64,000 nt of DNA, from positions 5,890,001 through 5,954,000 of the forward strand of contig OZ360238.1 of the NCBI GenBank assembly GCA_977017645.1, written 5' to 3'. The first letter of the stretch is position 1, and each line of letters opens with the position of its first letter. The notes below the pieces were generated by a model. It saw only the letters and a program-made list of their open reading frames with translations, had not been told where the DNA came from and searched no databases. This stretch comes from Torpedo marmorata (taxonomy: Eukaryota). Made by a program: the position numbers and the translations under genes. This document shows positions 477 through 53,152 of the stretch, in pieces.

Positions 477-3400
477 TATAGCGCGCTGCTGCTGCTTCGA
501 AGAAAACCACCACACACGAGGTAAGCTCAAACAAGACTGATTTAAAATCCTGATGATGAACAATTTATTCAAGATGCTTTTTTACATTTATCAGATGCTA
601 AAGAAAATATTTTAATTGGTGGAGATTTTAACTGTTGTTTAAATCCAATAATGGATAAAATTCTAAAACATCTGTTAGACCTAAAATAGTTTAAAAAATT
701 GTTAATTTGATGGAAGATTTAAATTTGGTAGATATTTGGAGGAAATTGAAGCCTAGAGAGAAAGATTATTCATTTTATTCATTTAGACATAACTCATTTT
801 CTAGGATAGATTTGTTTTTGTTATCTTCACAAATTCAGAATAGAATAACACAGGTATCGTATAAAGCAAGAATAATTTCAGATCATTCACCCTTATTAAT
901 GACATGTATAATCCCGGAGAAGGAAAAAACTGTATATAATTGGAGATTTGATTCTTCTTTATTGAAAAGAAAAGATTTTTGTGAATATATGAGAAGAGAA
1001 ATTCGGGAATTTTTGAGAACAAATAATAATTCGGTTAATGATAAATTTATGATATGGGAGGCTTTGAAAGCCTACCTAAGAGGTTTAATAATAAGTTTTT
1101 CAGCAAAGATTAAAAAAGATTATTTAAAAGAAGAAGAAAAATTAGAGAAGGAGATTGAATTAATGGAAAAGGATTTACAGAGAAATAAGTCTATTCTTAA
1201 GAGAAATCGTTTAGTGAGGAGGAAATTACATTATAATTTATTACAAACTCGTAAGACTGAAAAATTGATACAAAGAACAAAACAAAGATATTACGAATTA
1301 GGGGAAAAAGCTCATAAGGTTTTGTCATGGCAATTAAAAAAAGAGCAAGTTTCTAAAACTATCAATGCTATAAGGAAGAGAAATACTGGGGAAATAACTT
1401 ATAAGCCACAAGAAATAAATGAATCTTTTAAAGATTACTATCAGAATTTATATAGATCTGAGGTTGATCATGATGATATGAAGATTAATAGATTTTTATC
1501 TAAAATTACTTTACCTAAATTGAATGTTCAAAGTAAATATTCTTTGGATTTACCTTTTACGATGAGAGAAGTTACTGAGGCAATATCAACGTTGAAAAGT
1601 GGTAAATCTCCGGGTGATGATGGGTTTCCAGTAGAATTTTATAAAGAATTTAAAGATTTATTGATACCTTTATACATGGAGGTATTGAATCAAGTTACTG
1701 AAACTCATTTATTACCGAAGACATTTTTAAATGCTATTATTACGGTTATACCAAAGAAAGATAGAGATGTGTTGAAAACTGAGTCTTATAGGCCTATTTC
1801 ATTGTTAAATGTAGATTATAAAATAATGGCAAAAATTTTAGCAAACAGATTAGCTAAATATTTACCAAACCTTATACATTCAGATCAAGCTGGATTTATT
1901 AAGAATAGATATTCGAAAGATAATATAGCTAGATTATTAAGTTTGATTAATGTACATAAGAAGAAACAGGATTTACCATTGGTGGTAACATTAGATGCAG
2001 AGAAGGCTTTTGATAGAGTAGAATGGAATTTTTTATTTAAAGTTTTGGAAAAATTTGGATTTGGAGATAACTTTATAAATTGGATTAAAACTATATATAA
2101 AGAACCTACGGCCAAAGTAGTTACAAATGGACAAGTATCACAAAAATTTTTGTTATTAAGATCAACAAGACAGGGGTGTCCTTTGTCACCTGCTTTGTTT
2201 GTATTGGTAATAGAACCTTTAGCTGAAATGATTAGAGAGGATATAAATATAATGGGTATAAAAGTTGGTAGGGAAGAACATAAGATTAGTTTATTTGCAG
2301 ACGATGTATTAATATATATGACGAAATCTGTTACATCACTTCAATGATTGGCTGTTGTATTGACAGAATATGGTGAGATATCTGGATATAAAATTAATTC
2401 AGATAAAAGTGAGATTTTGGCCTTATCTCAAGGGGATTATACTAGATGTAAGGAAGTTACGGATTTTAAATGGACTAAAGAGAGTATTAAATATCTGGGA
2501 GTTAAAGTAGATACAAAATTGGAAAATTTGTATAAATTAAATTATATACCTTTATTTATGAAAATAAAAAAAGATCTAGAACTTTGGAAAGACTTACCTA
2601 TAACTTTGATGGGAAGAGTGAATTGTATTAAAATGAATGTTTTTCCAAGAATTCAATATCTTTTTCAATCGATTCCTTATGGTATCCCAAATAAATTTTT
2701 TAAGGATTTAAAATTTGTTGTTAGGAAATTTTTATGGAAAGGAAAGTTGGCAAGAGTAAGTATGGATAAATTAACATGGAATTATGAGATGGGAGGATTA
2801 CAACTTCCCAATTTTCAGTATTATTATAAAGTAGCGCAATTAAAGTTTATTAATGAATTTTTTGATTTGAATAAATCATCTGCTTGGATTAATATAGAAT
2901 TGAATAATATAGGTGAAACATATAAAGAAGATATTATTTATAAATGGAATTCTAAATTGTTGTCAGTTAAAAAGAAAAACACACCAATTATTAAACACTT
3001 GTTGGAAATTTGGTCACAAGTAGATAAAGAAATAGGTCGAAAAGGATCAATATCTTTAAATACACCAATATACCAAAATCCGCTTATACCATTTTCTATG
3101 GATAATCAGTTACTTAGATTATGGTTCCAAAAGGGAATTAAGACTTTTAAAGATTGTTTTGAAGCTGGTAGATTTATTACTTTTCAAAGGTTAAAAGAAA
3201 AATTTAATATATTAGATAATACAATCTTAGGTTATTTTCAAGTTAAAGCCTTTTTGATTGAGAGATTAGGGAATGAATTAATAGCACCAAGACAAAATGA
3301 ATTGGAATTGTTAATTACTAAAGTTAATATTAATAAGTTTATATCGCAAATGTATAAATTGTTCCAAAGACAGATGTCTAAAGTAGGAGTGCATAGGTCT

Positions 3401-4557
3401 AGATTAAAATGGGAATTAGATTTAAATGTTAATATAGATGAAAATCATTGGAGGGATTTATGTAAATTAAGTATGACTAAAGTTATTAATGTGAGATATA
3501 GATTAGTACAATATAATTTTTTTCATCAACTATATTTGACACCTAAAAAATTGAAGAAATTTAATCCAGCGTTATCAGATATGTGTTTTAGATGCAAAAG
3601 TGAAATAGGTTCTTTTGTACATTGTACATGGTCATGTTCAATAATTCAAGATTTTTGGCTGAAAGTTAAGAATTTTTTGGAGAGAATTTTTAATATTGAG
3701 TTTACAATGGATCCTATGTTATTTTTATTTGGGGATATTAAAAAATTTAGTATTAGAAATAGATTAAATATGTATCAAGTAGAATTTTTACGTATAGTAT
3801 TAGCAGTTTCGAAAAAATGTATAGCTATTACTTGGAAGTCAGATGTGGATTTAAATTTAGAGCGATGGCATGCAGAGTTACGTTCATGTATACCTTTAGA
3901 AAAAATTACTTACAATCTGCGAAATAAATATCATTTCTTTTTGAAAATTTGGGGCCCATATATGAGGATTATGGGTTTAACAATGTAAATTCTCTGGATG
4001 CTAGATCCACTGGCGAAATAACCTCTAAGGTAAATTAGTTTTAGGTCAATGTCTCCTCACTCTATTTTTCTATCTCTCTTTTTTCTTTTTCTTTTCTTTA
4101 CTATATTATTTTTTTAGAGTAGAGGGGGGGTTAGGGTGGGGAGGGCGGGAAGGGGGGGAGAAAATGTAAATCACATGTATTTATTTTTTTTTCTTTGAAA
4201 TATATGCAATTATTTTATGTAATGTGTGATTTTCAAAATTTAAATAAAATATAAAAAAAATAAAAATAAAAAAAAACAAGACTGATTTATTAGCTCTCTG
4301 GCTCTGTCTTATATAGGGCCAGGCAGCTGGAGAAACCCGCCTCTTCCAGCGAGGATGACGTCATGGGCCGGCCGCTGATTGATCGGTTTTCCCGCCGGTG
4401 GAGATGACGTCACGGGCCGGCCGCCAATTGGTCGGTTTTCCCGCCGGCCGACTGGAGCTGCTGCAAAAATGCCATTTAGTCTGTGGCCTTGGTGCGATCA
4501 CCGAGTTCGACCGCCATTTTGTGCAGCGGGTCGCCGATCGGCTCGCGGGCCGCTACA
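477..4557 (-). mobile_element. 5' LTR (~336 bp: 477-544 + 4290-4557) split by an L1 insertion
   Basis: Termini TGTAGCG (from 4557) ... CGCTATA (to 477). TATATAA near 4308-4314 and AATAAA at 4286-4291 on the minus strand. The halves rejoin across the L1 target-site duplication (TSD). Confidence 0.8.
545..4273 (+). mobile_element. L1-clade LINE, 5'-truncated, near-complete ORF2 (endonuclease, RT, cysteine-rich C-terminus), disabled
   Basis: GGDFN and SDH endonuclease motifs, QGCPLSP and FADD RT motifs, C-terminal CFRC...H...C. ORFs 707..2347 and 2348..3988 share a frame, split by TGA at 2345-2347. G-rich 3' UTR, AATAAA and A-rich tail. 16-bp TSD AAACAAGACTGATTTA at 529-544 and 4274-4289. Confidence 0.95.
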
Positions 4558-6136: not shown

Positions 6137-7864
6137 AATATAGGATATTGATAGTAGAGGATCATCAGGGGGCAAATTGATAGTAGAGGATCATCAGGCG
6201 GCATGGGGGGGTGCAGTGGCCCTTCCTTGTTCTGGTGGTCAAATCGGGTGTGGAAGGCATTGAGTTCATCTGGGACTGAGGCTTTGCTGTCTCCTACTGC
6301 ACCAGATTTGGTTTTGTAGCAGGTGATGTCATTTAGGCCCTGCCACAGCTGTCGGGTATCCTTCGTTGTTTCCATTCTTGTCCGGAAACTCCACTTTGCC
6401 CGGGAGATGGCTTTCCATAGGTTGTACCTACTCCTTGTGTCGTGTTCTGGACCTCCAGACTTAAATGCCTGCTCTCAGCAGGTTCTGGATTTCATTGTTC
6501 ATCCAGGGCTTCTGGTTGGGGAAAACCCTGAACGATTTGGTGGGGACACACTCATCAGCAGCTGTATTGATAAAGTCTGTAACGACCCTGATGTAATCAT
6601 TCAGATTCTCAGCTGAGTTCTTGAACACTGCCCAATCCACTGACTCGAGGCAGACCTGCAACCCTTCTTCAGCCTCCCGTGACCACCTTCTAGCTATCCT
6701 GATCTCTGGAGCCTCTCTTTTTAGGCTCTGTCTGTATGAAGGCAGAAGGTGATCCGACTTGCCAAAATGCGGTCTCGGGAAAGAACGGTAGGCCTTCCTT
6801 ATCTTGGTGCAGCAGTGATCGAGTGTGCTGGGATCTCTGGTGCAGCAGCTTATGAGCTGTTGGTAATTGGGCAGGGTTTTCTCGAGACAGGCCTGGTTAA
6901 AGTCACCGACTAAGATTTGTAGTGCATCAGGGTGGGCTGCCTCTTGTTTACTGACCACATCATGCAGCTCCGCAAGTGCCTGTTTGTAATTGGCATCGGG
7001 AGGGATACAAACTCCGGTGAGAATCACTGATGAGAATTCTCGGGGTAGAGAGAAGGGTCTGCATTTAATTGAGATTCACTCTAAGGCAGTGGAGCAGGAG
7101 ATCAACATGTCCCCAACATCCGTGCACCAGCCGCTATTACCGGTAACTAAAAAGCACACACAACCCCTTCTCTCTTTGCCAGTATCCGAGTTCCGATCTA
7201 GTCTGTGAATAGTGGAACTCTCCGGTCGGATGGCAGCCAGGTCTTTGTGCAGCAAACAACTGAGATTTGTCTCCCTTGTCTCTGATAAAGCAGCCTTGCC
7301 CCAAGGTTGTCAATTTTATTTTCTAATGACTGGATATTTGCCAATAGTATGGAAGGTAGGGGAGGTCTCAGTCCCCTGCGCTTCAGTCTGGTTTGGATCC
7401 CAGCCCTCACCTGGTGGGTCACCTGGTGTACAAACAGCCCTTCTGACCTTGACCTTGGTGGTGGCCCGGCCCTTTAAGGCCTCTACATTCCAGCCAGCCT
7501 GACTCAGCCGTTGCCGGGAGATTTTAAGTTTGTTTATGCGAATCAGCAGCTGCTCCTTGAGAAGAAGACTGCATGCTGCCCTGTGGTAAACCACTTTGTA
7601 TGTATTATGGCCTGAGGCAGGTATGACCATGACCTGTCTGTCTGTCCCGGTGACCCCTCCCCCTTTACCTGGAATAAAGGCCTTGAGCCAGCAACTCCTC
7701 CCCCAGTTCCGGGACAATCCAGCAGGGATCATCAGGTCAAGGCATAGTCTGCCCTGGCTTTGATTCTGTTAATAAAAGCCTTGTTAATTCCTGCACTTCT
7801 AGACTCGTGTCGGTTATTGATAGGTATATCAATTTTATTAACAGTTTCAACAAAATACGAATCA

Positions 7865-10240
7865 ATGGAGAATTTGTTAAAGCCAGACAAGCTAGACATC
7901 GACCCCCTGGCCCAAGACGCTGCAAGCGATTTTGAACTGAGGCAACGCTGCTTCACAGCCTACGTGAGGTCGTCCGGAGCGGCTACCGACGAGCAGAAAC
8001 TCGATATCCTCATGTCCAGGGTAAGCAAGCGAGTGTATGGCGCCGTCAGAGACTGTGGGACTTTTGATGATGCCTTGGTCGCCCTCCGAACGCTGTACCT
8101 GACGCCTGCGAACGAGATTTTCGCAAGGCACCGGATATCGCAGCGGTACCAGCGACCCGGAGAGTCGGTCTCCGAATATATCCAGGACGTGATGCTCCTG
8201 GTACGAGCGTGTGACTGTCGAGCCCTGACGGCTGAGCAACACTCCGAGATTCTGGCAAGGGACACTATCATAAAAGGGATCAGGTCGGGCTACATCCGCC
8301 AGCGATTGCTGGAACACGCCGACCTGACCCTGAAATCGACTGTCCAGAACATCCTGAATCTGGACTCAGCCCTAAAGAACGCTGACGCTATGCAGGCGCA
8401 GCCTGCTTCTTGGATCGCCCCAACCGTCAGCCCTACAAGCAACGCGACGGCTGCTGCCGTCTACCGGGACCCGCTCGCCGCCGCCGACGCTATCCGTGAG
8501 TTGGCCGCTGCCGCCGCTGCCCGAGAGCCCGCCGCTACCCGTGAGTTAACCGCTGCCGCTATCACCCGGGAGCCCGAGAAGTGCTACTTCTGCGGGCTCG
8601 ACAAGCACCCGCGCAAGCGCTGCCCGGCCCGAGACGCGACTTGTTCTAGCTGTGGCAAGAAAGGCCACTATGCTAAGGTCTGCCGCTCCAAGTCGCGCAC
8701 GGGTCCGAGCAGCGCCGCGTGCGAGGTACGGGAGCGGCCATCTTACTCGACTCCACTTCCGGCGGAGACCTCGTGTGAGGTCTGGAGGCAGCCATCACAG
8801 CGCGCAGCACTTCCGTTTTCCAGCAGCGCCACGTGCGACGGGAGGGGGCGGCCATCTTACCCGACGTCACTTCCTGAGGAGACCTCGTGCGAGGACTGGA
8901 GGCGGCCATCTTGGTCCACACATCCGTTCTCTACATTTCCGGCGCGGCCATTTTATAATCTCACCGCAGCACTTCCAGCACTCCCGGCTCCACCCCCTCG
9001 TAGCGACACGTACGAGCTACGGGAGCTGCCACCGGATCAAGATCAAGACTTCGTCTCGACCCTGGCATCCGTGACGCTGGACCAGAGCGCGCCCCATCAA
9101 CTGTCCAGATCCATGATGGACATCCTCGTTGAGGGGCATAAGACCACCTGCCTGTTCGACACAGGCAGTACAGAAAGTTTTATCCATCCTGACACTGCCC
9201 AGCGCTGTGGCCTCACCATTGTACCGGTAAGCCAGAGGGTGGCCATGGCGTCTGGAACGCACACAACAGACATCCGGGGGGGTTGTGTGGTGAATATAGT
9301 GGTACAGGGCACGGAATATCGGGAGTTTTTATTGTTAATCATGCCCCGTTTGTGTGCTCCTGTATTGCTGGGATTGGACTTCCAAAGCCACCTGCGTAGC
9401 GTCACCATGCACTATGATGGGCCCCACCCCCCAATCGTTGTGACTAACCCCCAATATTTAATTAATACGCCCCAGACTACCTGTGGTCTCTCCACACTAA
9501 AGACCCAACCCCCGCCACTCTTCGCCAACCTGACCCCTGACTGTAAGCCCATCGCAACTAAAAGTAGGCGATACAGTGCAGGGGACAGGGCATTCATTAA
9601 GGCGGAGGTGCAGCGTTTACTGGGGGAAGGGATCATTGCACCCAGTAACAGCCCCTGGAGAGCACAGGTAGTCGTGGTGAAGAACGGGGCTAAGAGCCGG
9701 ATGGTGGTGGACTATAGCCAGACCATCAACCGGTTCACGCAACTGGACGCCTATCCGCTGCCGAAGATCGCGGATATGGTCAACCAGATTGCTCAATACA
9801 AAGTCTTCTCCACCATCGACCTTAAGTCGGCTTACCACCAGCTCCCAATCCGCCGGGAGGACCGAGTATACACCGCTTTCGAGGCGGACGGCAGATTATT
9901 CCATTTACTGCGCGTTCCCTTCGGGGTAACAAATGGGGTATCCGTGTTCCAAAGGGAGATGGACAGGATCATTGACCAGTTCAAGCTCACTGCCACCTTC
10001 CCGTACCTGGACGACATCACCATCTGTGGTCATGATCGCCAGGATCACGACAGGAACCTTCGGAAGTTCTTACAGGCGGCCGAGACGCTGAACCTCACAT
10101 ATAACAAGGAGAAATGCGTGTTCGGGACTACCCGACTCGCTATCCTGGGGTGCGTCGTGGAAAACGGGGTGATTGGACCCGACCCCGACCGCATGCGCAG
10201 TGTTGGAACTTCCGATCCCCGTTACCCCCAAAGCACTTAA
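7865..10240 (+). CDS. Gag-protease-reverse transcriptase polyprotein (5' part of a frameshifted gag-pol)
   Basis: ATG at 7865 (MENLLKPDKL). Two zinc knuckles CYFCGLDKHPRKRC and CSSCGKKGHYAKVC, protease LFDTGS, RT motifs DLKSAYHQ, PFG and YLDD. Confidence 0.9.
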   Translation: MENLLKPDKLDIDPLAQDAASDFELRQRCFTAYVRSSGAATDEQKLDILMSRVSKRVYGAVRDCGTFDDALVALRTLYLTPANEIFARHRISQRYQRPGESVSEYIQDVMLLVRACDCRALTAEQHSEILARDTIIKGIRSGYIRQRLLEHADLTLKSTVQNILNLDSALKNADAMQAQPASWIAPTVSPTSNATAAAVYRDPLAAADAIRELAAAAAAREPAATRELTAAAITREPEKCYFCGLDKHPRKRCPARDATCSSCGKKGHYAKVCRSKSRTGPSSAACEVRERPSYSTPLPAETSCEVWRQPSQRAALPFSSSATCDGRGRPSYPTSLPEETSCEDWRRPSWSTHPFSTFPARPFYNLTAALPALPAPPPRSDTYELRELPPDQDQDFVSTLASVTLDQSAPHQLSRSMMDILVEGHKTTCLFDTGSTESFIHPDTAQRCGLTIVPVSQRVAMASGTHTTDIRGGCVVNIVVQGTEYREFLLLIMPRLCAPVLLGLDFQSHLRSVTMHYDGPHPPIVVTNPQYLINTPQTTCGLSTLKTQPPPLFANLTPDCKPIATKSRRYSAGDRAFIKAEVQRLLGEGIIAPSNSPWRAQVVVVKNGAKSRMVVDYSQTINRFTQLDAYPLPKIADMVNQIAQYKVFSTIDLKSAYHQLPIRREDRVYTAFEADGRLFHLLRVPFGVTNGVSVFQREMDRIIDQFKLTATFPYLDDITICGHDRQDHDRNLRKFLQAAETLNLTYNKEKCVFGTTRLAILGCVVENGVIGPDPDRMRSVGTSDPRYPQST

Positions 10241-11960
10241 ACGATGCCTCGGGTTTTTCTCCTATTATGCGCAGTGGGTCCCAAACTACTCGGACAAAGC
10301 CCGACCCCTCGTCAAGTCCACCAAGTTTCCCCTGGCAGCGGAGGCACGTGAGGCTTTCGACCTCATAAAGGGGGACATCGCCCGAGCAGCGATGCACGCG
10401 GTGGACGAGTCGGAACCTTTTCAGGTAGAGAGTGACGCCTCGGACTTCGCACTGGCTGCTACCCTCAACCAGGCGGGAAGACCGGTAGCGTTTTTCTCCC
10501 GCACCCTTCAAGGCCCCGAAATTCGGCACTCCGCGGTAGAGAAAGAGGCCCAGGCCATTGTCGAGGCTGTCCGGCACTGGAGGCACTATCTCGCCGGAAA
10601 ACATTTTACCCTGCTGACGGACCAGCGCTCCGTCGCTTTCATGTTTAACAGCCAGCAGCGGGGTAAAATTAAAAATGATAAAATCATGAGGTGGAGAATA
10701 GAACTCTCCACCTACAATTACGACATCCTTTACCGTCCCGGGAAGCTCAACGAGCCCCCTGACGCTCTATCCCGGGGATCGTGCGCCAGCGCGCAGATCG
10801 ACCGGTTATACGCCCTACATAATGACCTCTGCCACCCAGGAGTCACCAGGCTGTTCCACTTCATTAAAGCACGGAACCTGCCTTTCTCCCTGGATGAGGT
10901 CAAGACCATGACCAGCAGCTGCCGAGTCTGTGCGGAATGCAAACCGCAGTACTACCGCCCCGACAGAGCACAGCTGGTCAAAGCCACCCGCCCCTTCGAA
11001 CGTCTCAGTATAGACTTCAAGGGCCCCCTCCCCTCCACGAACCGCAATGTGTACTTCCTCAACATCATCGATGAGTACTCGCGGTTCCCCTTTGCCATCC
11101 CCTGCCCAGACACCTCGGCGGCGTCGGCTATCAAGGCTCTCCACCAGGTTTTCACCGTGTTCGGGTTCCCCAGCTATGTCCACAGCGACCGGGGGTCCGC
11201 GTTCATGAGCGGGGAGCTGCGACAGCACTTGCAGACCCGAGGCATCGCTACCAGCAGGACCACGGGGTACAACCCACGGGGGAACGGACAGGTGGAGAGG
11301 GAGAACGCCACAGTATGGACAGCGACACTACTGGCCCTGAAAGCAAAAGGGTGGCCAGTGGCTCGCTGGCAGGAGGTTCTCCCGGACGCCCTCCACTCTA
11401 TACGATCCCTCTTATGTACCGCCACTAACACTACCCCTCACGAACGTATCTTTTCCTTCCCCAGAAAATCGACCACCGGGACTACACTCCCCGCCTGGCT
11501 GACGTCCCCGGGGCCGGTGCTACTCCGCAAACATCTTCGGAGTAGCAAGTACGAGCCCTTAGTCGAGAGGGTGCAGCTGATCCATGCAAACCCGCAGTAC
11601 GCATTCGTGGTTCTCCCCAACGGGCGGGAAGACACGGTGTCAATACGGGACCTGGCGCCTGCAGGAGCGTCTGAAGAGGTCCCCGACAGCGGGAACGCCG
11701 GGTCGCAGCTGCCCCCACCGGACCATCCGCCTCCCAGCACGACGTTGTCCCCGTCACAGCTGTACTGGCCACTAGCCAGGCAGGAGGCGAACCAGCCCCA
11801 GATCCACCCTACTGTACCTACTCCCACTCCGCAGCCACAACCATCCCCGCGGGCATCACGTATTTTCACTCGTACCCTCATTCCACAACCACTACCATCA
11901 CCGCTGGCGCTACGCAGGTCACGGCGGCAAATCCGGCCGCCGGCGAAACTCGACCTGTAA
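10199..11960 (+). CDS. RT connection, RNase H and integrase (3' part of pol, shifted frame)
   Basis: ESDAS, EKEAQAI and TDQ RNase H motifs; HNDLCH...CRVC zinc finger; IDFKG, HSDRG and NGQVER DDE triad. No chromodomain evident. Start is the approximate frameshift position. Confidence 0.9.
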
Positions 11961-12624
11961 AAACTGTATATTATCTATGTATTCTGTATTTTTTTCTTCT
12001 TTTTTTACAGTATCCACTTCACCCCCCCGTCGGACTTGTTCTAAAAGAAGGGGTGAATGTGGTAAACCACTTTGTATGTATTATGGCCTGAGGCAGGTAT
12101 GACCATGACCTGTCTGTCTGTCCCGGTGACCCCTCCCCCTTTACCTGGAATAAAGGCCTTGAGCCAGCAACTCCTCCCCCAGTTCCGGGACAATCCAGCA
12201 GGGATCATCAGGTCAAGGCATAGTCTGCCCTGGCTTTGATTCTGTTAATAAAAGCCTTGTTAATTCCTGCACTTCTAGACTCGTGTCGGTTATTGATAGG
12301 TATATCATGCCCATTGCAGTGAAAGGAGGTTGGATGGAGAATATTTACAAGGAAATGTAGTTGTGGTCTCTGCAGCCCGCAGAAAGTTGCCGGTGATCGC
12401 TGGCGCCATTTTTTTTGCATGGACATGGACCCCAAGATCTCTCTGTACCTCCGCACTGTTAAGAATCCTGCCATTAACCACGAACTCCACCTTAAGTCAG
12501 GGTGTCAAACTGATTGAGGCGATGTGATGGAGGTGTGCAAGATCAGGATGGGGTTGAGTAAGGAAAAGGGTGAGATTAACAGAGGTCAGGAACGCAGATT
12601 TTTAATTTTGAGCAAATTTTTAAA

Positions 12625-13328: not shown

Positions 13329-13555
13329 CAATTTACAAATGCAAGTTCGGCTTCTCCCTTTCGTTTTGCTGAGATTTCATTCAGAACAATTTATACTTTA
13401 CACGTTTTCTACAACTGTCGCACGTATAATAACAGACCAAATATCCCTGCAGCGAAGGAATGAATTAGGCTTCATTTATTAATAAAACTTGATTATGCAA
13501 AATCACAGTACAACAATGATTAAAAACGTAAACATATTAAAGTTCAAACAATCGC

Positions 13556-16500
13556 AAAAATAAATAACGCTGGTGACAAAGGGCATCCTTGTCTAGTAGA
13601 TCTAGTCAGGGGAAATCTTGAAGAAATTTGTCCATTTTTAATTACTTTAGCAGATGGTTCTTTATATATAGTTTGAATCCAATTAATAAATGTAGTTCCA
13701 AAACCAAATTTCTCCAATACCTTAAATAAAAAATTCCACTCTAATCTATCAAAAGCCTTTTCAGCATCTAGCGTTAATACTAATGGTAAATCTTCCTTCT
13801 TTTTATGTACATTAATTAAACTAATTAATCTAGCTATATTATCTTTTGAATATCTATTTTTAATAAAACCAGCTTGATCTACATGAATTAAATCTGGTAA
13901 ATAATTAGCCATTCTATTTGCTAAAATTTTTGCCATTATCTTATAATTTACATTTAGCAATGAAATAGGTCTATATGATTCAGTTTTCAGTACATCTCTA
14001 TCTTTTGTAGGTATAACTGTAATTATTGCATTCAAAAATGTATCCAGTAACGAATGGGTTTCCGTAATTTGATTCAATACATCCATATACGGAGGTATCA
14101 ATAAATCTTTAAACTCTTTATAAAATTCTGATGGAAATCCATCTTCACCTGGAGATTTACCACTCATTAAAGAAGTAAGAACTTCATTAACTTCCCTCAT
14201 TGAGAAAGGTAAATCTAAAGATTCTCTACTTTGAGTATTTAATTTAGGTAATGTAATTTTAGATAAAAATCTAATAATTTTAGAATCATCTTCATCAATC
14301 TGAGATTTATATAAATTCAAATAATAATCTTTAAAAGAATCATTTATTTCTCGAGGTTTATAAGTTATTTCCCTAGAATTCTTTTTCTTTATAGCATTTA
14401 TAGTTCTAGAAGTTTGATCTTTTTTAAATTGCCATGCCAAAACTTTATGTGCTCTTTCTCCTAACTCATAATATCTTTGTTTAGTTCTTCCAATTAATTT
14501 TTCCATTTTATATATTTGTAATAAATTATATTGTAATTTTTTCCCAAACTAAATTATTCCTTTTTTGAACTGATCTATTTTTTTGTAAATCTTTTTCCAA
14601 GCACTCAATCTCCTTCTCTAAATTATCTACCTCCCGAAGATAATCCTTCTTGATTTTAGCTGAATAACTTATTATTTGACCTCTTAAATAAGCTTTTAAA
14701 GCTTCCCAAATAATAAATTTATTATCAGTAGAATTAGAATTTATTTGTAAAAAATCCTGAATTTCCCTTCTCATATAATCACAAAAATCTTTTCTTTTTA
14801 GTAAAGAAGAATTAAATCTCCAGCTATATACAGTTTTCTCTTTTTCCGGAATTATACAAGATATTAATAAAGGTGAATGATCAGAAATTATTCTCGCTTT
14901 ATAAGATACTTGCGTTATTCTGTCTTGAACCTGTGAAGACAATAAAAATAAATCTATCCTAGAATATGAATCATGTCTAAAAGAATAAAAAGAATAATCT
15001 TTTTCTCTAGGGTTCAATTTTCTCCAAATATCTATTAAATTTAAATCTTTCATCAAAGTGAGAACTCTTTTAGCAATTTTAGTTTTAGCAAGTGATCTTG
15101 AAGTTTTATCCATTATTTATTTTGGCGATAGGACCTTTGGCAGAATTAGTTAGAAAAGATGCTAAAATTGTAGGTATTAAAGTTGGAATGGAAGAACATA
15201 AAATTAGTTTATTTGCAGATGATGTATTGATATATATGACAAAATCTATTACATCTTTAGTACAATTGTTTGCGTTATTGAGAGAGTATGGGGAAATATC
15301 TGGATATAAAATTAACTCTGATAAAAGTGAAATTATGGCATTATCACAAGGGGATTATAGTAAGTGTAAAGAAATTACACAATTTAAATGGGCAAAAGAA
15401 GGAATTAAATATTTGGGAATAAGGATTGATACAAAATTGGCTAATTTATATAAATTAAATTATCTACCATTATTTGTGAAAATAAAAAAAAAATTAGAAA
15501 ATTGGAAAGATTTACCTATAACTTTAATCGGAAGGGTAAATTGTATTAAAATGAATGTTTTTCCAAGAATTCAATATCTTTTCCAATCAATTGCTTATGA
15601 AATTCCTCAAAAATTTTTTAAAGATTTAAATTCAATTATTAGGAAATTTTTATGGAAAGGAAAGTTAGCAAGTATAGGTATAGAAAAATTAACTTGGAAT
15701 TATAAAATGGGTGGTTTACAACTTCCTAATTTTCAAAATTATTATAAAGCAGCTCAATTAAAATTTGTTAATGAACTTTTTGATTCAACTAAATCTTCTG
15801 CTTGGATTAAAATAGAATTAAATAATATAGGAGAAGATTACAAAGAAGAAGTTATTTATAAATGGGATTCTAAATTAATATCAACAAGAAGGAAAAATTC
15901 TCCTATTCTTAAACATTTGTTAGAAATATGGAATAAGACGGATAAGGAAATAGGAGGAAAAGGAACGATTTCTCCAAAGATGCCTTTATATCAAAATGAA
16001 CTTATTCCATTTACTATTAATAATCAATTATTTAAAATTTGGTTTCTAAAAGGAATTAAGAAAATAAATGACTGTTTTGAAGCTGGGAAATTTATTACGT
16101 TTCAAAGAATGAAAGATAAATTCAATATATTGGATAATACACTTTTTGCTTATTATCAAATTAGAGCATTTTTGATTGAGAAATTAGGTTATAGTTTGAT
16201 CTTACCAAGACAGAATGAATTAGAATTATTAATTACTAAAGGAGATGTAAATAAATTTATTTCTCAAATGTATAAATTGTTTCAGAGGAAAACTCCTAAA
16301 GTAGGAATTCATAAATCAAGATTAAAGTGGGAATTAGATTTGAATGTAACAATAGATGAAAATTATTGGAAAGAATTATGTAAATTAAGTATGACGAAGA
16401 TTATTAATGTTAGATATAGATTAGTACAATACAATTTTTTTCATCAATTATATTTAACACCTAAAAAATTAAAGAAATTTAATCCGACATTATCAGGTTT

Positions 16501-19500
16501 ATGTTTTAGATGTAATAAAGAGGAAGGTTCTTTTGTACATTCTACATGGTTTTGTCCAAAAGTTTATGATTTTTGGTTGAAAGTTAAAAAATTTTTAACC
16601 ATATAACCATATAACAATTACAGCACGGAAACAGGCCATTAGGCCCTTCCAGTCCGCACCGAACCAAACATTCTTATCTAGTCCCACCTACCTGCACCCT
16701 GCCCATAACCCTCCACTTCCTTCTCATCCATATACTTGTCCAACTTTTTCTTAAATAATAAAATTGACTCTGCCGCCACTACTTCTCCCGGAAGCTCATT
16801 CCACACCGCTACCACTCTCTGAGTAAAGAAGCTCCCCCTCATGTTACCTCTAAACCTCTGCCCCTTAACTCTTAGCTCATGTCCTCTTGTTTCAATCTCT
16901 CCTATTTTTAATGGAAATAGTCTATCCACATCCACTCTGTCTATCCCTTTCATAATTTTAAATACCTCTATCAAATCCCCTCTCAACCTTCTACGCTCCA
17001 AAGAATAAAGACCTAATATGCTCAATCTCTCCTTGTACTCTAGATTCTTAAACCCAGGTAACATTCTGGTAAACCTTCTCTGCACTCTCTCCACCTTGTT
17101 GATATCCTTCCTATAATTTGGCGACCAGAACTGCACACAGAACTCTAAATTAGGCCGTACTAAAGCCTTATATAATCTCAACATCACTTCCCAACTCCTA
17201 TATTCTATGCAATGATTGATAAAGGCCAGCATACTAAAAGCCTTCTTCACCACCCTATTCACATGAGTTTCCACCTTCAGGGAACGATGCACCGTTATTC
17301 CTAAATCTTTCTGCTCTTCTGTATTCATCAATGCTCTCCCATTTACTACATATGTCCTGTTCTGATTCTTCTTACCAAAATGAAGCACCTCACACTTATC
17401 AGCATTAAACTCCATCTGCCATTTTTCAGCCCACTTTTCTAAGCAGCCCAAATCCCTCTGCAATCCTTGAAAACCTTCTTCATTATCCACTATTCCACCT
17501 ATCTTAGTATCATCTGCATATTTACTAATCCAGTTTACCACCCCATCATCTAGATCATTGATATATATAACGAACAACAATGGGCCCAATACAGATCCCT
17601 GAGGCACACCGCTGGTCATGGGCCTCCAACCTGACAGACGATTATCCACTACCACTCTCTGGCCTCTCCCTTCCAGCCAATGTTCAATCCATTTGACTAT
17701 CTCAGAATTTATACCTAAAGACTGCACCTTCCTAACTAACCTTCCATGCGGAACCTTATCAAAGGCCTTACTGAAGTCCATATAGACAACATCCACCGCG
17801 CTACCCTCATCCACATTCCTAGTCACCTCTTCAAAAAATTCAATCAGATTGGTCAAACAGGACCTTCCGCTCACAAATCCGTGTTGAGAGTTCCTGATCA
17901 GACCCTGTCTATCCAGATATTTATAAGTACTATCTCTGAGAACATTCTCCATTAATTTACCTACCACAGACGTCAAACTTACAGGCCGATAATTGCCAGG
18001 CTTCCTCCTTGAACCCTTTTTAAATAACGGAACCACATGCGCAATACGCCAATCCTCCGGCACTATCCCCATCTCTAATGACATTTGGAAAATCACCGTC
18101 AGAGCCTCTGCTATTTCTTCGCTTACTTCTCTCAAGGTCCTGGGGAAGATCCCGTCAGGTCCCGGAGACTTATCCACCTTTATATGCCTCAAAAGCCCTA
18201 ACACTACATCTTTCGTAATCCCTATATTCTCCATATTTACCCAATTTGCTTTTTTTATCTGGCATATCTCAATATCCTTCTCCTTGGTGAATACCGAAGA
18301 AAAGAAACTGTTCAATATCTCCCCCATTTCTCTAGGCTCCACACACAGTTTTCCGCTCTGATTCTCTAAGGGACCAATTTTGTCCCTCGCTTTCCTTTTA
18401 CCATTAACGTATTTGTAAAAACCTTTTGGATTAATTTTCACCCTGCTTGCTATAGTCTCTTCATACCTTCTTTTAGCTTTCCTAATTCCTCTCTTAAGAT
18501 TCTTTTTACATTCAATGTATTTTTCAAACATCTCCTTTCCATGCTTCTTATACTTAATGTGCGCCTCCCTTTTTTTTCGAACCAAGTTTCCAATATTCCT
18601 CGAAAACCACGGCTCTCTCAAACCTTTTGCCCCTCCTATTAACCTAACAGGAACATAAAGCCTTTGCACTCTCAAAATCTGATCTTTAAAAGACTTCCAT
18701 CTCTCTACTACATCCTGCCCATAAAACAAATGGTCCCAATGCACACCCTGTAAGTCCCTTCGCATCTCCTCAAATCTAGCTTTTCCCCAATCGAAAACCT
18801 CAACCCTTGGCCCTGACTTATCTCTTTCCATAATGACATTGAAGCTGATGGCATTATGATCACTGGACCCGAAGTGCTCGCCAACACAAACCTCTGTCAC
18901 TTGACCTATCTCATTTGCCAACAGTAGATCTAACACTGCTCCTTCTCTGGTCGGTACCTCTACATATTGTTGTAAAAAACTATCCTGCACACATTTCACA
19001 AACTCCAACCCATCCAGCCCTTTCACAGAATGTGTTTCCCAATCTATTTGTGGAAAATTAAAATCTCCCACAATCACAACCCTGTGCTTATCACAAATAT
19101 CCACTATCTCCCTACAGATTTGCTCCTCTAGGTCTCGGTCCCCTCCGGGTGGTCTATAATACACCCCTACAAGTGTAACTTCTCCTTTCCCACTTCTCAG
19201 TTCTACCCAAATAGCCTCCGTGGACGAGCCCTCTAATCTATCCTGCCTAAGTATTTAAGATTACATTTCCAATGGATCCTATGATATTTTTGTTTGGAGA
19301 TATTAGAAAACTTAGTATTAAGGTGAAATTAAATATGTACCAAATAGAATTTCTGCGAATTGCTTTAGCTGTTTCAAAGAAATGCATTGCTATTACTTGG
19401 AAATCTGATCTCGATTTAGGGTTACAAAGATGGCATGCAGAACTTCGTTCATGTATACCACTTGAAAAAATTACTTATAATTTACGTAATAAATATCATT

Positions 19501-20621: not shown

Positions 20622-23560
20622 CCATATAACCATATAAACCATATAACATTTACAGCACAGAAACAGTCCAGTTCGGCCCTTCGACTCCATGCCGATCACA
20701 TTCTCCCACCTAGTCCCACTGACCCGCACCCGGCCCATAACCCTCCACACCTCTCTCGTCCATATACCTATCCAACTTTTCCTTAAACATTAAAATTGAA
20801 CCTGCATCTACCACTTCGGCTGGAAGCTCATTCCACCCTCCCACCACCCTCTGAGTGAAGAAATTCCCCCTCATGTTTCCTCTAAACCTTTCCCCCTTCA
20901 ATCTCAATCCATGCCCTCTTGTTTGAATTTTCCCCTCTCTCAATGGAAAAAGCCTGTCCACATTGACTCTATCTTTCCCCTTCATAATTTTAAATACCTC
21001 TATCAAATCACCCCTCAACCTTCTACGCTCCAGGGAATAAAGTCCCAGCCTGTTCAACCTTTCCCTATAACTCAAACCCAGAAACCCAGGCAACATTCTT
21101 GTAAATCTCCTCTGCACTCTCTCTATTCTGTTTATATCCTTCCTGTAATTCGGTGACCAAAACTGCGCACAATATTCCAAATTTAGCCTCACCAATGCCT
21201 TATACAACTTCAACATGACATCCCAACTCCTACATTCAATACTCTGATTTATGAAGGCCAACATACCAAATGCCTTCTTCACCACCCTATCTACGTGTGA
21301 CTCAACTTTCAGGGAATTATGTACCAGAATTCCTAAATTCCTCTGTTCTACTGCACTTCTCAATTGTCTTCCATTTAACATGTATGATCTTTGCTGATTA
21401 ATCCTACCAAAATGTAGCACCTCACATTTATCAGTATTAAATTCCATCTGCCATGTTTCCGCCCACTCTTCTAACTGTCCTATATCCCCTTGCAAGCTTT
21501 GATATCCTTCTTCACTGTCCACAACACCACCAATCTTCGTATCATCTGCATACTTACTAATCCAATTTACCACCCTATCATCTAGATCATTAATATATAT
21601 GACAAACAACAATGGACCCAGTACCGATCCCTGAGGCACTCCACTTGTCACCGGCCTCCAATTTGACAAACAATTTTCCACCACTACTCTCTGGCATCTC
21701 CTATCCAACCATTGTTGAATCCATTTCACTACTTCGTCGTTAATACCTAATGCTTGAACCTTCCTAACGAGCCTCTTATGCGGAACCTTGTCCAACGCCT
21801 TACTAAAGTCCATATAGACAACATCCACAGCCTTCCCCTCATCAACCCTCTTAGTAACCTCATCGAAAAACTCTATGAGATTTGTCAAACATGATCTACC
21901 ACGAACAAAACTGTGTTGACTACTCCTAATCAATGCTTGTCTTTCCAAATAACTGTATACACCATCTCTAAGAACACTCTCCATTAATTTACCCACTACC
22001 GATGTCAGACTCACAGGCCTATAATTTCCAGGTTTACTTTTGGAGCCCTTCTTAAACAGCGGGACAACATGAGCTACCCTCCAATCCTCTGGCACCTCCC
22101 CCGTGGCCAGTGACATTTTAAATATTTCTGTCAGAGCCCCCACTATTTGTACACTAACCTCCCTCAGAGTCCTCGGGAATATCCTGTCAGGACCTGGAGA
22201 TTTATCCACCTTTATACTCTTTAAAATAGCCAATACTACCTCCTCGTTAATCTTTATATTATCCATGACCTCCCTGCCAGATTGCCTTACTTCACCTGCC
22301 TCAATATTCCTTTCCTTTGTAAATACTGAAGATAAAATTCATTTAAAATCTCCCCCATCTCCTCTGACTTCTCACATAGCCTACCCGTCTGATTCTCAAT
22401 GGGCCCAATTTTATCCCTCACTATTCTTTTGCTTTTAATGTACCTGTAGAAACCCTTTGGATTTATTTTTACCTTGCCTGCCAAAGCAGCCTCATATCTC
22501 CTTTTAACCTTTCTAATTTCTTTCTTAAGATTTTTTTACACTCCTTATATTCCTCAAGGACCTCATCTATTCCCTGCTGTCTATACCTGTTGTACACATC
22601 CCTCTTCCTCCGAACCAAATTCCCAATATCCTTTGAAACCCAAGGCTCCCTATATTTTCTAACTCTTCCTTTAATCCTCACAGGGACGAACCGACTCTGT
22701 ACTCTCAAAATTTCCCCTTTGAATATCCTCCATTTATCTGTGACATCCTTTCCTAAAAATAAATGATCCCAATCCACACCCTCTAAATCCTTCCTCATCT
22801 CCTCAAAATTTGCCTTATTCCAATCAAGAATCTCAACCTTAGGCCCAGCCCTATCCTTCTCCATTATCAACCTAAAACTAATGTTATTATGATCACTTGA
22901 CCCAAAGTGTTCCCCAACACAAACCTCTGTCACCTGACCTATCTCGTTCCCAAATAGGAGATCCAATACTGCCCCCTCTCTAGTCGGTTCTTCTATGTAT
23001 TGATTTAGAAAACTTTCCTGAACACATTTGACAAACTCCAACCCATCCTGCCCTATTACAGTATGGGCGTCCCAGTCAATATGTGGAAAGTTAAAATCAC
23101 CTATAATCACCACCTTATGCTTATTACACATATATTCTATCTCCTTACAAATTTCCTCCTCTAATTCCCTCTGCCCATTCGGTGGTCTATAATACACTCC
23201 CATTAGTGTTTTCATGCCTTTCCCATTCCTCAATTCCACTCAAATAGCCTCACTGGACGAGCCCTCCAATCTATCCTGCCATAGCACCGCTGTAATGCTT
23301 TCTCTAACAAGCACTGCGACCCCTCCACCTTTTATCCCCCCTGTTCTATCACGCCTAAAACAACGGAATCCAGGAATATTTAGCTGCCAATCACACCCCT
23401 CCTGCAACCAAGTTTCACTGATGGCTACAATATCATATTTTCATGTATCAATCCATACTCTAAGCTCATCCACCTTTCTTACAATGCTCCTTGCATTGAA
23501 ATATATACACTTGAGAGAATGTCCCCCACATACACTCCTTTGATTACCCTCTCCTTCATT
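20622..23560 (-). mobile_element. CR1-clade LINE with essentially complete but frameshifted ORF2
   Basis: Minus ORFs 22469..23239, 22287..22484 and 20710..22266. Endonuclease start CIYFNARSI near 23480-23510. (ATATGGTT)n tail at 20622-20648. 5' boundary approximate. Confidence 0.92.
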
Positions 23561-39254: not shown

Positions 39255-42200
39255 GAGACCTATTGGAATTTTTTGAGGTAATCTCAAGTAGGATGGACAA
39301 GGGAGAGGCTGTGGATGTTGTGTATTTGGATTTTCAAAAGGCCTTTGATAAGGTGCCGCATAAGAGGCTGCTTAATAAGATGAGAGACCATGGAATTACA
39401 GGAAAGATATTAGATTGGGTGGAGCATTGGCTGATAGGCAGGAAGCAAAGGGTGGGAATAAAGGGATCCTGTTCTGGTTGGTTGCTGGTTACTAGTGGTG
39501 TTCTGCAAGGGTCGGTGTAGGGGCCGCTTCTTTTTTACAATGTATATTGATGATTTAGATTATGGGTTGAATGGTTTTGTTGCTAAGTTTGCAGATGACA
39601 CCAAGATAGGTGGTGGAGTAATAAGTGTTGAAGAAACCAAAAGGTTGCAGAGAGACTGGGACAGCTTAGGAGAGTGGGCAAAGAAATGGAAGATGAGATA
39701 CAATGTTGAGAAATGTACGGTTGTACATTTTGGAAGAGGAAATATCCTATTTGGATGGGGAGAAAATTCAAAATTCGGAAGTGCAAAGGGACTTGGGGGT
39801 CCTCGTACAGGATAACCTAAAGGTTAACCACCAGGTTGGATCGGCAGTAAAGAAAGCAAATGCTATGTTGGCATTCATTTCAAGAGGTATACTGTATAAG
39901 AGTAAAGAGGTGTTGATGAGGCTCTATGGGGCACTGGTGAGACCTCATTTGGACTACTGTGTGCAGTTTTGGGCCCCTTATCTTAGAAGGGATGTAATGA
40001 TGTTGGAGAGAGTACATAGAAGATTTACCAGGATGATTCCTGGAATGCAAGGGCTAACATATGAGGAAGGTTTAGCGGCTCTTGGACTGTATTCATTGGA
40101 GTAAAGAAGAATGAGAGGGGATCTCATAGAAACATTTCGAATGCTGAAAGGATTGGACAGAGTAGATGTGAATAAGATGTTTCCCTTGGTGGGTGAATCC
40201 AGGACAAGAGAGCAGGACAAGTGACCCTAGCTATCACAAGAGCCAAGCTGTCTAAGACGATCAGGGAGGCAAAGCGTGCACAGGCCCAGCGAATTCAGAG
40301 TCACTTTCAGGACAGCAAGGACACGCGACGCATGTGGAAGGGCATTCAAGATATCACTGGCCACAAGACTACAGCATCTGACTGTGCTGGTGATGCCTCC
40401 CTTCCAGATGCACTGAACAACTTCTACGCGTGTTTTGAGGCAAAAAATGATGTAGTAGCAAAGAAGAAAACCCCTCCTCCAAATGAACAGGTGCTGTGTT
40501 TCACAGTGGCCGATTTGAGGAGAGCGTTAGGCGGGGTTAACCCGCGGAAAGCTGCTGGGCCAGATAACATTCCCCGCAGAGTGCTCAGGGGATGTACGGC
40601 CCAGCTGGCTGATGTTCTCACCGACATCTTTAACATCTCCCTGACCAGTGCCGTGGTACCAACGTGCTTCAAAGCCGCTACCATCATCCCCGTGCCGAAC
40701 CGCCCTGTCGCACTCACATCCACCGTCATGAAGTGCTTCGAGAGGCTCGTCATGAGGCACATCAAGCTTCTGCTGCCCCCCTCACTGGACTCCCTGCAGT
40801 TCGCATATAGATCAAACCGCTCCACAGATGATGCCATCATTACCACCCTCCACCTAGCCCTCACCCACCTGGAAAATAAGGACGCGTATGTTCGAATGCT
40901 GTTTATTGACTTCAGCTCGGCATTCAACACAATCATACCTCAGTACCTGATAGGGAAGTTGAGGGGGCTGGGCCTAAACTACACCCTCTGTAATTGGATC
41001 CTAGACTTCCTGACGGGAAGACCTCAGGCAGTCCGGATTGGAAACAGCACTTCCAAGGTCATTACATTGAGCACGGGGGCTCCCCAGGGCTGTGTGCTTA
41101 GTCCATTGCTGTTCACCCTGCTGACTCATGACTGTGCAGCAAAACACAGCTCGAATCACATCATAAAGTTCGCTGATGATACGACCGTGGTGGGCCTTAT
41201 CAGTAAGAACGATGAGTCAGCATACAGAGAAGAGGTGCAGTCGCTAATGGAATGGTGCTGAGCCAACAACCTGCATCTGAATGTAAACAAAACGAAATAG
41301 TTGGTTGTCGACTTCAGAAGGGCCCGGGGAGATCATTCTCCTTTGACCATGGACGGCTCTACCGTTGAGGTCGTAAAGAGTACCAAGTTTCTTGGAGTGC
41401 ACTTGGCGGAGAGTCTCAGCTGGTCCCTCAACACCAGTTCCATAGTCAAGAAAGCCCAGCAGCGTCTTTACTTCCTGCGAAGACTGAGGAAAGTTCATCT
41501 CCCACCCCCAATCCTTACTACATTCTACAGGGGATGTATTGAGAGTATTCTGAGCAATTGCATCACCGCTTGGTTTGGAAACTGTACCACCTTGGACCGA
41601 AAGACCCTGCAGAGGATAGTGAGGGCAGCGGAGAAAATTATTGGAGTCTCTCTCCCCACCATGACAGACATTTACAACACACGATGCATGAGGAAGGCTA
41701 AAAACATTGTGAAAGACTTATCACACCCCTTTGCCATCTGGAAGGAGGTACCAAAGCACTCGGGCTCGCACGTCCAGACTGTGCAACAGTTTTTTCCCCC
41801 AAGCCATCAGACTCTTCAATTCCTAGATACATATGTGTATTAGCATGTTATAGTTTTTCTATTGTATTATGATATTTATGTACATCTGCCCATGGTCCTG
41901 GAGAAACGCTATCTCGTCTTACTGTGTATATGGTAATGAACGACAAATAAAGGTGACTTGACTTGACTTGACTGTCTTAGAATTAGAAGGTACCCATTTA
42001 GAACCGAGATGAGGAGGAATTTCTTTAGCCAGAGGGTTGTGGATTTGTGGAATTCGTTGCCACATACAGCTGTGGAGGCCCGATCATTGGGGGATTTTAA
42101 GAAGGAGATTGATAGGTATCTAATTAGTCAGGGTATCAAGGGATATGGGGAAAAAGCCAGAAATTGGAATTAGATGTGAGAACAGTTTAGCTTAGGGTGG

Positions 42201-52266: not shown

Positions 52267-53152
52267 CCATGTTATAGCATTCATGACGCTTATGGCTAGA
52301 AGATCTATTTTGCTTAGGTGGAAAGATTCTATTCCGCCTACCTATGTCCAGTGGATGTGCCAAACTTTATCTTTTTTATATTTAGAGAAGATTAGATGTG
52401 CTATAATTGATAAGTTTGTCAGAAAGTGGCGCCCGTTTATGAATTTTTTTCATGATTCTTAAACCTGCTTTAATACGATATGTTTTATTATTGTCTTGTA
52501 GGGGCTCGCGACCTACTCCGCAGGACAACACAGTCGAACATGACGATCGCGCAGGCGGCGCGTGATCCAAACGGCCTGTTTCCATAGGCCACAACAGCAG
52601 GGAGGAAACAGGCCAATCCCCGACGACGGATCGTGGCCCGACCAATCCTGGTCGTCGCATCACAAGCCACGCCTCATCAGTGACGTGGCAGCCCGGCTGG
52701 GCCCGCCTGTAAATGCAGAGTCGACAGCAGAGTAGGGATCTCCTCTTGAACTCCAGTGACTAGAGCTATAACCGACTCGACACGCAGAGCTACAACCGTA
52801 GCGACGCGCTACAGCCTTTCCCTTCATGTTAACTATTTTCATTTATGTAACGGAACATTTTCTTGTTTATTACTGAATTTTAAGGCATCCCAACTTCTAA
52901 TTTTTAATTTTATTTTTTCTCTATTAGGCAAGGGGGTTAGATAACCTAATTTAGTTTAGTATTAGTTAGATAGTTCAGGATATATATCTTTTTTACTGTT
53001 TTTATTATCCAAACTACAGAGCTGTGGGGTATCAATTACTGTTTGTTAGGATGTATATCCGTTTGATTTATAATCTGTAACTTCGCATTCGATATATTAT
53101 GATTTTTTTTTGTGTGCTTAAACTAAATAAAAAGATTGGAAAAGAAAGAATA
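52267..53152 (+). mobile_element. Old L1 3' fragment inserted in the minisatellite
   Basis: VIAFMTLMARRSILLRWK...LYLEKIR...KWRPF (L1 ORF2 C-terminus), AT-rich UTR, AATAAA and A-rich tail. Confidence 0.8.
52497..52813 (+). mobile_element. CpG-rich solo LTR (317 bp)
   Basis: Termini TGTAG...CTACA. Imperfect 4-bp TSD GTCT/GCCT. Ends (TGTAGGGGCTCGCGA..., ...GCGCTACA) resemble the sense strand of the LTR at 477-4557. Confidence 0.72.

Follow-up and report, generated by a model that had tools for sequence, protein, structure and literature searches.

A long terminal repeat complement at the primer-site position and probable self-priming in an animal Gypsy clade

How might a Gypsy element start reverse transcription when the position behind its 5' LTR offers no tRNA-binding site? 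Such an element spans positions 7582–12307 of the window, the 64,000-nt stretch of DNA analysed here (Table 1). Its LTRs, target duplication, polypurine tract and gag-PR-RT-RH-IN order are those of Ty3/Gypsy elements (Metaviridae), the best PDB match is the Ty3 RT, and the order RT-RH-IN differs from that of the Gmr1 type, in which integrase precedes RT. As the original prediction held, the translation contains twin CCHC knuckles, and Pfam found no chromodomain in the window element. A frameshift near 10,200 disrupts this copy. In many of its sister copies, frames of ~1,370–1,470 codons stay open through RT, and the genome harbours thousands of young copies of the element.

Fission-yeast Tf1 has been shown to self-prime, and the same has been predicted for Tf1/sushi chromoviruses and for a small number of plant lineages. 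Repbase entries mention self-priming for some Gypsy families. No report of self-priming in the animal clade described here was found in our literature search, outside of which lay Repbase reports and subscription journals. We propose that in this clade an LTR complement replaces the tRNA site and that its members probably use their own RNA as the primer for reverse transcription. If so, tRNA-independent priming either arose again in a separate animal lineage or predates the current view, and silencing by tRNA fragments could not, by our reasoning, reach these elements. Since the LTR complement takes the place of the tRNA site, tRNA-based annotation would label them 'PBS missing'.

Table 1. Features of the element and its flanks, in window coordinates
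Feature	Position	Strand	Description	Evidence
Target-site duplication, left copy	7577..7581	+	5 bp	TGCCC on both flanks
5' LTR	7582..7831	+	250 bp, TG...CA	100% identity with 3' LTR
Upstream box, putative TATA-like element	7672..7681	+	contains AATAAA	in 10/10 aligned A/B/C LTRs
Initiator-like YYANWYY	7703..7709	+	putative start A7705	motif spacing
Additional arm of the original prediction	7760..7766	+	complement of 7859-7865; not conserved	letters confirmed
LTR arm, putative 3' end of self-primer	7766..7777	+	AATAAA at 7771-7776 inside	exact complement and covariation
Second helix	7778..7825	+	7778-7781 with 7822-7825; begins one base past arm; putative nick 7777/7778	pair probability 0.72-0.90
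Alternative 7-bp hairpin across LTR end	7816..7833	+	mutually exclusive with second helix	
Primer-binding-site position	7833..7844	+	LTR+2..+13; no tRNA site	exact complement of LTR arm
gag-protease-reverse transcriptase	7865..10240	+	twin CCHC knuckles	
RNase H-integrase frame	10173..11960	+	without chromodomain or SH3_Tf2-1 domain	
Polypurine tract	12043..12057	+		relatives with similar tracts
3' LTR	12058..12307	+	second arm copy at 12242-12253	
Target-site duplication, right copy	12308..12312	+	5 bp	

The primer-site position complements and covaries with the LTR

The letters around the LTR end are as originally described: no TGG directly follows position 7831, the first one downstream being at 7866 (LTR+35), and the LTR arm and the primer-site position are exact reverse complements of each other. 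Among 51 clade rows whose LTR ends were fixed by target duplications, 47 carry a complement of at least 10 nt, which in 44 of them begins at LTR+2; three tandem-repeat rows of L141 and seven TA-repeat rows of L187 had been dropped from this count. Three of the four shorter rows have mis-set LTR ends (L100, L135 and L160), with the complement visible, and the fourth is a rearranged locus (L050). Across the clade the complement is 12–19 nt long; it reaches just 3–7 nt in 12 rows from a Gypsy family of the same genome that has the TGG and served as control. Pairing over the 12 nt is perfect in 82 of 100 clade loci and 11/12 in 10 more, a count that leaves aside 16 loci offering no usable gag anchor, the 20 control loci and L164; the LTR arm of L159–L178 is fixed by selection, because the pattern used to pick these loci contained the 12-mer.

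The two strands of this putative duplex change together. Seventeen distinct 12-mers, all beginning at LTR+2, form 204 Watson-Crick pairs out of 204 with their own LTR arms, without a single G-U pair; arm and site taken from different families pair at a mean of 7.4 and a maximum of 11 of 12 positions (n=272) in a comparison of 23 representatives hand-picked as intact examples. In an alignment of 11 copies, five pairs are changed on both sides, none of 500 shuffles reached the covariation score, and pairing drops to 39–47% in slid controls. Furthermore, two single-site variants are linked between arm and site (18/18 and 21/21 copies; 0/39 discordant). The compensatory change that had been suggested as a check on the original prediction is thus strongly evident among relatives. 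Six distinct 12-mers occur within this one genome, each complementary to its own LTR; because the site differs in this way among sister families, a fixed host RNA cannot track it. Naturally matched and mismatched arm pairs allow direct tests of mechanism, for example of whether only the extreme 5' end of the RNA can act as a self-primer.

Predicted folds around the duplex

Folding predicts the arm-site duplex together with a second helix that starts from the next base. The window fold has a z-score of -2.85, and one of 200 shuffles was equally stable. Of 15 families, 12 have the second helix adjoining the arm, where 1.7 would be expected, although families that are related do not count as independent cases; when stem length alone was tested, the result for this helix was weak (sum 72 versus a null mean of 62 and a maximum of 80). 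The 7-bp hairpin that had been claimed across the LTR end was located, and in 11 own-genome copies 74 of its 74 cells are paired, including one compensated pair. RNAalifold picked this hairpin, the probability of which is just 0–0.2 in single folds.

A further pairing put forward by the original prediction, between 7760–7766 and 7859–7865, is present in the letters but is not conserved, own pairs being no better than cross-family ones. It was rejected as a clade feature: only for 6 of 23 representatives did the energy of the own duplex place among the best 3 when set against 22 cross pairs. For the window copy, 10 of 22 cross pairs are as good as the own pair, and the pairing overlaps the main duplex at base 7766 and is not favoured by the folds. 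The predicted structure comprises a central duplex and one flanking helix, and the cross-family test yielded no third conserved duplex of the kind found in the Tf1-style 'pretzel'. The accessible portion of a study of Tf1 describes a duplex that joins post-PBS sequence to LTR sequence lying downstream of the primer (bioRxiv 2022.12.06.519325); this type of duplex was absent from the folds obtained here.

RNA start, poly(A) signal and possible routes of priming

In addition to the AATAAA at 7771, the LTR contains one at 7673 that the original prediction, which placed the RNA start near 7766, had overlooked. From this TATA-like hexamer to the initiator A at 7705 the spacing is 31–32 nt in 51 of 52 own-genome copies (52 of 64 loci, selected for carrying the upstream box). 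The spacing is preserved through offsetting indels, whereas the distance from box to arm ranges from 75 to 107 nt. The conserved box and initiator sit 61 nt further upstream than a start at 7766 needs, and no TATA-like motif was found ~30 nt upstream of 7766. Judged by these promoter motifs, the chances that the RNA starts near 7705 are roughly even; a start near 7765 is less probable, and one at neither place less probable again. The motif reading is itself soft: the promoter scan also matches the arm's own AATAAA in three of four A/B/C rows, and it gave no match in two family-D rows or in seven of eight invertebrate-type rows.

In Tf1, the self-primer consists of the RNA's initial 11 bases. 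If transcription begins near 7705, and not at 7766, the arm that provides the primer may lie ~60 nt in from the 5' end, an internal position unlike that in Tf1, and the upstream TATA-like/initiator pair would remove the closest Tf1 parallel. In the mechanism that we envisage, modelled on Tf1, a nick made in the RNA at 7777/7778 by the element's own RT/RNase H would release a 3'-OH, which would be extended across A7832, U5 and the remainder of R; with poly(A) cleavage near 7795, ~18 nt would be available for the transfer to the 3' end. The last 12–14 nt of the primer would be copied later, regenerating the site, and we propose that the pairs are purely Watson-Crick because such copying would rewrite it. 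With a start near 7705, the primer would be a capped piece of ~73 nt anchored by its final 12 bases. The literature searched offered no earlier example of a long self-primer, and it counts against this version that nothing shown would halt the copying of a long primer at 12–14 nt. The arm-site duplex might also conceal the 5' LTR AATAAA. Only tentatively do we suggest the complete scenario, in which a widespread non-chromovirus animal Gypsy clade would have evolved self-priming independently and in a manner mechanistically unlike Tf1, with an internal nick just past the poly(A) signal, a long capped 5' primer, a site rewritten every cycle and the same duplex silencing the 5' poly(A) signal.

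Self-priming could also follow Tf1 more closely, with a start at ~7764–7766 and the first 12–14 transcript bases as primer. Pairing decays beyond LTR+13 (17/17 there, 13/17 at +15 and 7/17 at +16), as if a copied primer ended at that point, and four copies of one invertebrate-type family (L034, L035, L057 and L071) share a G-to-T mismatch at +15. The lack of a TATA-like motif before 7766 and the constant box/initiator spacing at a varying distance from the arm speak against this sub-case, which we regard as rather unlikely.

The duplex might instead mask the poly(A) signal of the 5' LTR or give the leader its shape, with priming by other means. All 17 arms terminate in TAAA, and AATAAA lies inside nine of them (12 when ATTAAA and AGTAAA are counted); the partner is present only behind the 5' LTR, which supplies the needed asymmetry, and a start at 7705 would make masking necessary. 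Nevertheless, five of the 17 arms have none of the three hexamers, and in L041 the AATAAA is located outside the duplex. For masking, moreover, G-U pairs should be acceptable, as should some slack in the register, but no G-U pair occurs among the 204 and LTR+2 is fixed; nor is an alternative primer site visible. This alternative is accordingly improbable, and the masking that the original prediction attributed to the duplex is plausible in the window copy but does not hold clade-wide, with AATAAA in the arm of just 9 of 17.

We assign a similarly low likelihood to the idea that the primer is the identical arm in the 3' R, or that of a second packaged RNA, paired in a circle or in trans. The LTRs are identical, so the copies are indistinguishable by sequence, and a start near 7705 would put the arm in R and hence at both RNA ends. 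In the own-genome A/B/C families, however, bases 7822–7825 of the second helix lie beyond the putative poly(A) site and would thus belong to the 5' copy only, and the local fold is favoured (0.78–0.99).

Priming by a host small RNA or half-tRNA, or a match by chance, is very improbable and largely refuted by the covariation: half-tRNA primers are known in Copia lineages, according to the accessible part of PMC6317226, and the tRNA set was partial (27 distinct genes for 7 amino acids, with the control family's own tRNA not recovered), but the best match within those 27 was just 5–6 nt, the six 12-mers of this genome each fit their own LTR, and when the LTR was dinucleotide-shuffled 20,000 times, a complement of at least 12 nt starting at LTR+1..+6 arose in 5 cases. 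A search for a tRNA-like end matched mainly the element's own LTR arms.

Clade placement and comparison with known systems

In an RT tree, the clade forms one group (100/99, stem 1.44) relative to Gmr1-type and plant Tat-type rows, with no Tf1/sushi sequence included; Gmr1-order rows fell outside it. Excluded from the tree were four named proteins, three loci whose RT matches were short and the clade copy within L034. Chromodomain and SH3_Tf2-1 are absent from all five integrase-bearing clade proteins scanned (P0002, P0125, P0144, P0147 and P0160), PF00385 is annotated for none among the matches listed (120 and 53), and six examined out of 15 chromodomain matches in the own genome included none near RT/RH/IN. 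The SH3_Tf2-1 search led to a Gmr1-order family; a DUF4939 search gave no match, its positive control being silent as well. Plasmid and phage collections yielded no Tf1/sushi element, two scans of viral contigs no relative of the element, and the ESM Atlas generic RT clusters only. The relatives are animal, with named proteins from cnidarians, molluscs, nematodes, arthropods and cartilaginous fishes.

The accessible portions of work on Tf1/Tf2 of Schizosaccharomyces pombe, Tj1, Tosmo1-3 and Tf1/sushi chromoviruses describe elements without a tRNA site, in which the post-LTR position perfectly complements the LTR and further helices flank the duplex (PMC7175516, PMC4600332, bioRxiv 2022.12.06.519325, PMC5341516). 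As far as those portions go, the clade shares with this group the absent tRNA site, the complementarity of the PBS position to its own LTR and a predicted helix beside the duplex. It differs in its twin-knuckle gag and in lacking SH3_Tf2-1 and the chromodomain, which is usual in that group without being universal; it differs also in a 12–19 nt complement that starts at LTR+2 and in the overlap of its arm with a poly(A)-like hexamer. According to the part of PMC6317226 available, self-primers are recognised by a complement of at least 10 bp beginning 0–5 bp after the 5' LTR, a rule under which the element falls together with the predicted plant self-primers Tcn1 (a Gypsy chromovirus) and TAR/Houba/Osr-1 (Copia). 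Those are plant lineages, whereas the element's relatives are animal. The fungal GalEa Conserved Hairpin Site, dictyostelid Skipper and bivalve TRIMs also represent LTR elements without a tRNA site (PMC5445492, PMC5006619, PMC6934838); the accessible text of these papers reports no complement within the LTR, in contrast to the perfect and covarying one found here.

By description only, the clade resembles Cigr-1 (Cigr-1/Mag lineage), which occurs in Ciona and also in a snail and in cephalopods. Cigr-1 measures ~4.2 kb, with LTRs of ~245 bp, a single ORF of ~1,200 codons and a gag of the Mag type. No statement on a Cigr-1 primer site was found in PMC6238403, and a peptide motif search of its supplements gave no matches, the searched files listing families and accessions. 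A Mytilus match has no counterpart in the two Cigr-1 genome rows in file 3 of that paper. Cigr-1 families are recorded there in Biomphalaria and Octopus, and one match obtained here comes from Argonauta.

The window element and its family

The window Gypsy element has two identical LTRs of 250 bp, includes a polypurine tract and is flanked by a target duplication of 5 bp; its coding sequence is broken by a frameshift near position 10,200, and many sister copies hold a single long frame. The family is young and large, with all 150 scored reverse transcriptase (RT) matches 99–100% identical and 8,671 genomic matches to a pattern holding the LTR arm, versus 249 for the control pattern. Because most of the arm-pattern matches listed fall in LTR-spaced pairs, we infer some 4,000 elements, divided among several subfamilies. 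Among named proteins, the best matches come from rays and catsharks (73–82%), followed by those from invertebrates (about 55–65%), which makes a cartilaginous fish the probable host. One element of this clade (locus L034, 2204–9806) is nested within a TGG-primed Gypsy element whose integrase precedes RT.

Features of the window sequence, in window coordinates
Feature	Position	Remarks
Gypsy element	7582–12307	order gag-PR-RT-RH-IN; self-complement at the 5′ LTR end
AATAAA-containing box	7672–7681	found in all 10 aligned LTRs
LTR arm	7766–7777	within the 5′ LTR; putative 3′ end of the self-primer
Arm AATAAA and initiator-like motif	7771–7807	motif 30–32 nt downstream in 3 of 4 rows of families A, B and C
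Second helix (predicted)	7778–7781 with 7822–7825	loops out the CA end of the LTR
LTR-end hairpin (predicted)	7816–7833	
Site	7833–7844	LTR+2 to LTR+13; exact reverse complement of the arm
Internal direct repeat	8704–8910	~93 bp, 85% alike; between gag knuckles and protease
RT-bearing frames	695–3988, 13544–19254, 20710–23239, 40197–41261	likely LINE copies; endonuclease domain in two
48-bp tandem array	53009–57900	~100 copies, ~92% alike; long open frames on both strands

Covariation of the arm and the site

The original prediction held that the element primes reverse transcription from its own LTR arm, and its letters for arm, site and LTR-end hairpin were all confirmed in the window sequence. 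Among the 30 nearest copies, window copy included, no difference falls in either arm, although these copies are 98–100% alike and their intact arms weigh little alone. Covariation was assessed in sister families of the same genome and in relatives from metagenome and MAG contigs. With LTR ends fixed by target duplications, the complement reached 10 nt or more in 47 of 51 clade rows, 44 of them starting at LTR+2, against just 3–7 nt by the same measure in 12 rows of a TGG-bearing Gypsy family of the same genome. Across 100 loci with a gag anchor, the complement was perfect over 12 nt in 82, whereas 11 of the 12 positions paired in 10 loci, 10 in one and fewer in seven, some of these owing to mis-set anchors.

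Twenty-three representatives, chosen by us as intact, yielded 17 distinct 12-mers in which 204 of 204 pairs are Watson–Crick and none is G–U, compared with a cross-family mean of 7.4 of 12. For L031, L039, L179, L180, L182 and L186, the LTR end was set from the CA and the leader instead of a full second LTR. In an alignment of 11 copies, both bases change in five of the pairs, none of 500 shuffles reached the covariation score, which relatedness of the copies can inflate, and slid registers collapse. Two single-base variants within families B and C always change arm and site together (39/39 copies). The compensatory change called for by the original prediction is thus present, both in the own-matched 12-mers and in these linked variants, and the signature is real.

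Self-priming is the best reading, and a likely one. Starting from the duplex and its register, which are shown, a nick at 7777/7778 would free the primer end, extension would run across U5 and the remainder of R, strand transfer would use about 18 nt of R, if poly(A) addition falls near 7795, and copying of the primer's end would renew the site. That the duplex serves poly(A) masking alone is unlikely; masking as a second role, as originally proposed, is plausible in the window family, and more so if transcription starts at 7705, but five of the 17 arms contain none of AATAAA, ATTAAA or AGTAAA. It is likewise improbable that priming comes from the 3′ arm, or from an arm acting in trans. Priming by a host RNA, or a chance match, is scarcely credible, as a host RNA could not follow six different sites in one genome, and only 5 of 20,000 LTR shuffles gave a complement as long as that observed.

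Transcription start and predicted RNA folding

The start had been expected near 7766, and a scan 30 nt upstream of this position found no TATA-like motif. A YYANWYY initiator lies 31–32 nt downstream of the AATAAA-containing box in 51 of the 52 copies that hold the box (of 64 examined), and the box-to-arm distance varies from 75 to 107 nt. In core promoters, such spacing reads as TATA plus initiator, which would place transcript +1 at 7705. Counting against this reading, the same scan was also positive at the arm's own hexamer in three of four rows and gave no signal in family D or in seven of eight invertebrate-type rows, and pairing ends sharply at 12–14 nt, which fits a short primer. A second start after the arm's AATAAA, if used, would give RNA lacking the primer; for Tf2, RNA without primer is reported, by a different route (PMC5341516).

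The main arm–site duplex was predicted with a probability of 0.78–0.99 in folds from 7705, 7760 or 7766. In 12 of 15 families the predicted second helix begins at the base directly following the arm, compared with 1.7 expected from shuffled loops; a cruder stem-length test gave it weak support, and the motif is inherited among families. This helix and the LTR-end hairpin are mutually exclusive. Families A, B and C conserve the hairpin, which is also the choice of RNAalifold, but its probability in single folds is 0–0.2. The additional pairing once proposed between 7760–7766 and 7859–7865 proved not to be a feature of the clade in own versus cross-family comparison.

Relation to known elements

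The clade would work like the self-primed fission-yeast element Tf1, as Tf1 is described in the literature (PMC7175516, PMC4600332, PMC5341516, PMC11042837, bioRxiv 2022.12.06.519325), and the window element agrees with the published self-primer rule (PMC6317226). Neither a chromodomain nor an SH3_Tf2-1 domain was found in any of the five clade proteins scanned, and the clade should therefore not be filed under Tf1/sushi. In the RT tree, 32 of 39 rows form one long-stemmed clade (support 100/99), relative to outgroups that are long branches and include no chromovirus. The clade may resemble Cigr-1. A search of the open literature, with Repbase and subscription papers outside it, found no description of an animal Gypsy clade outside the chromoviruses that self-primes. 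New here may be that single-base variants are linked between arm and site, that a helix begins at the predicted cut, and that there is evidence for a possibly internal arm.

Family D (L127, L137, L138) groups with a Paramuricea protein (100/99), and the window element and L079–L116 group with ray and catshark proteins. The genome holds two separate lineages of the clade, possibly through two entries or horizontal transfer.

Contigs filed as bacterial MAGs or plasmids (L179–L187, L224–L228) encode eukaryote-type LTR retrotransposon proteins, likely as contamination; in L224 and L225, chromodomain-like sequence was recognized by eye at the end. A further young Gypsy family, of Gmr1 order (L139–L158; e.g. 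L148, 3986–7927), has a SCAN gag, integrase before RNase H and a TGG primer site, and RT is wholly missing in 13 of its 20 fetched loci. Since L145–L148 have open frames of 1,266–1,321 codons and LTRs that are 99.9–100% identical, elements lacking RT seem to be mobilized in trans.
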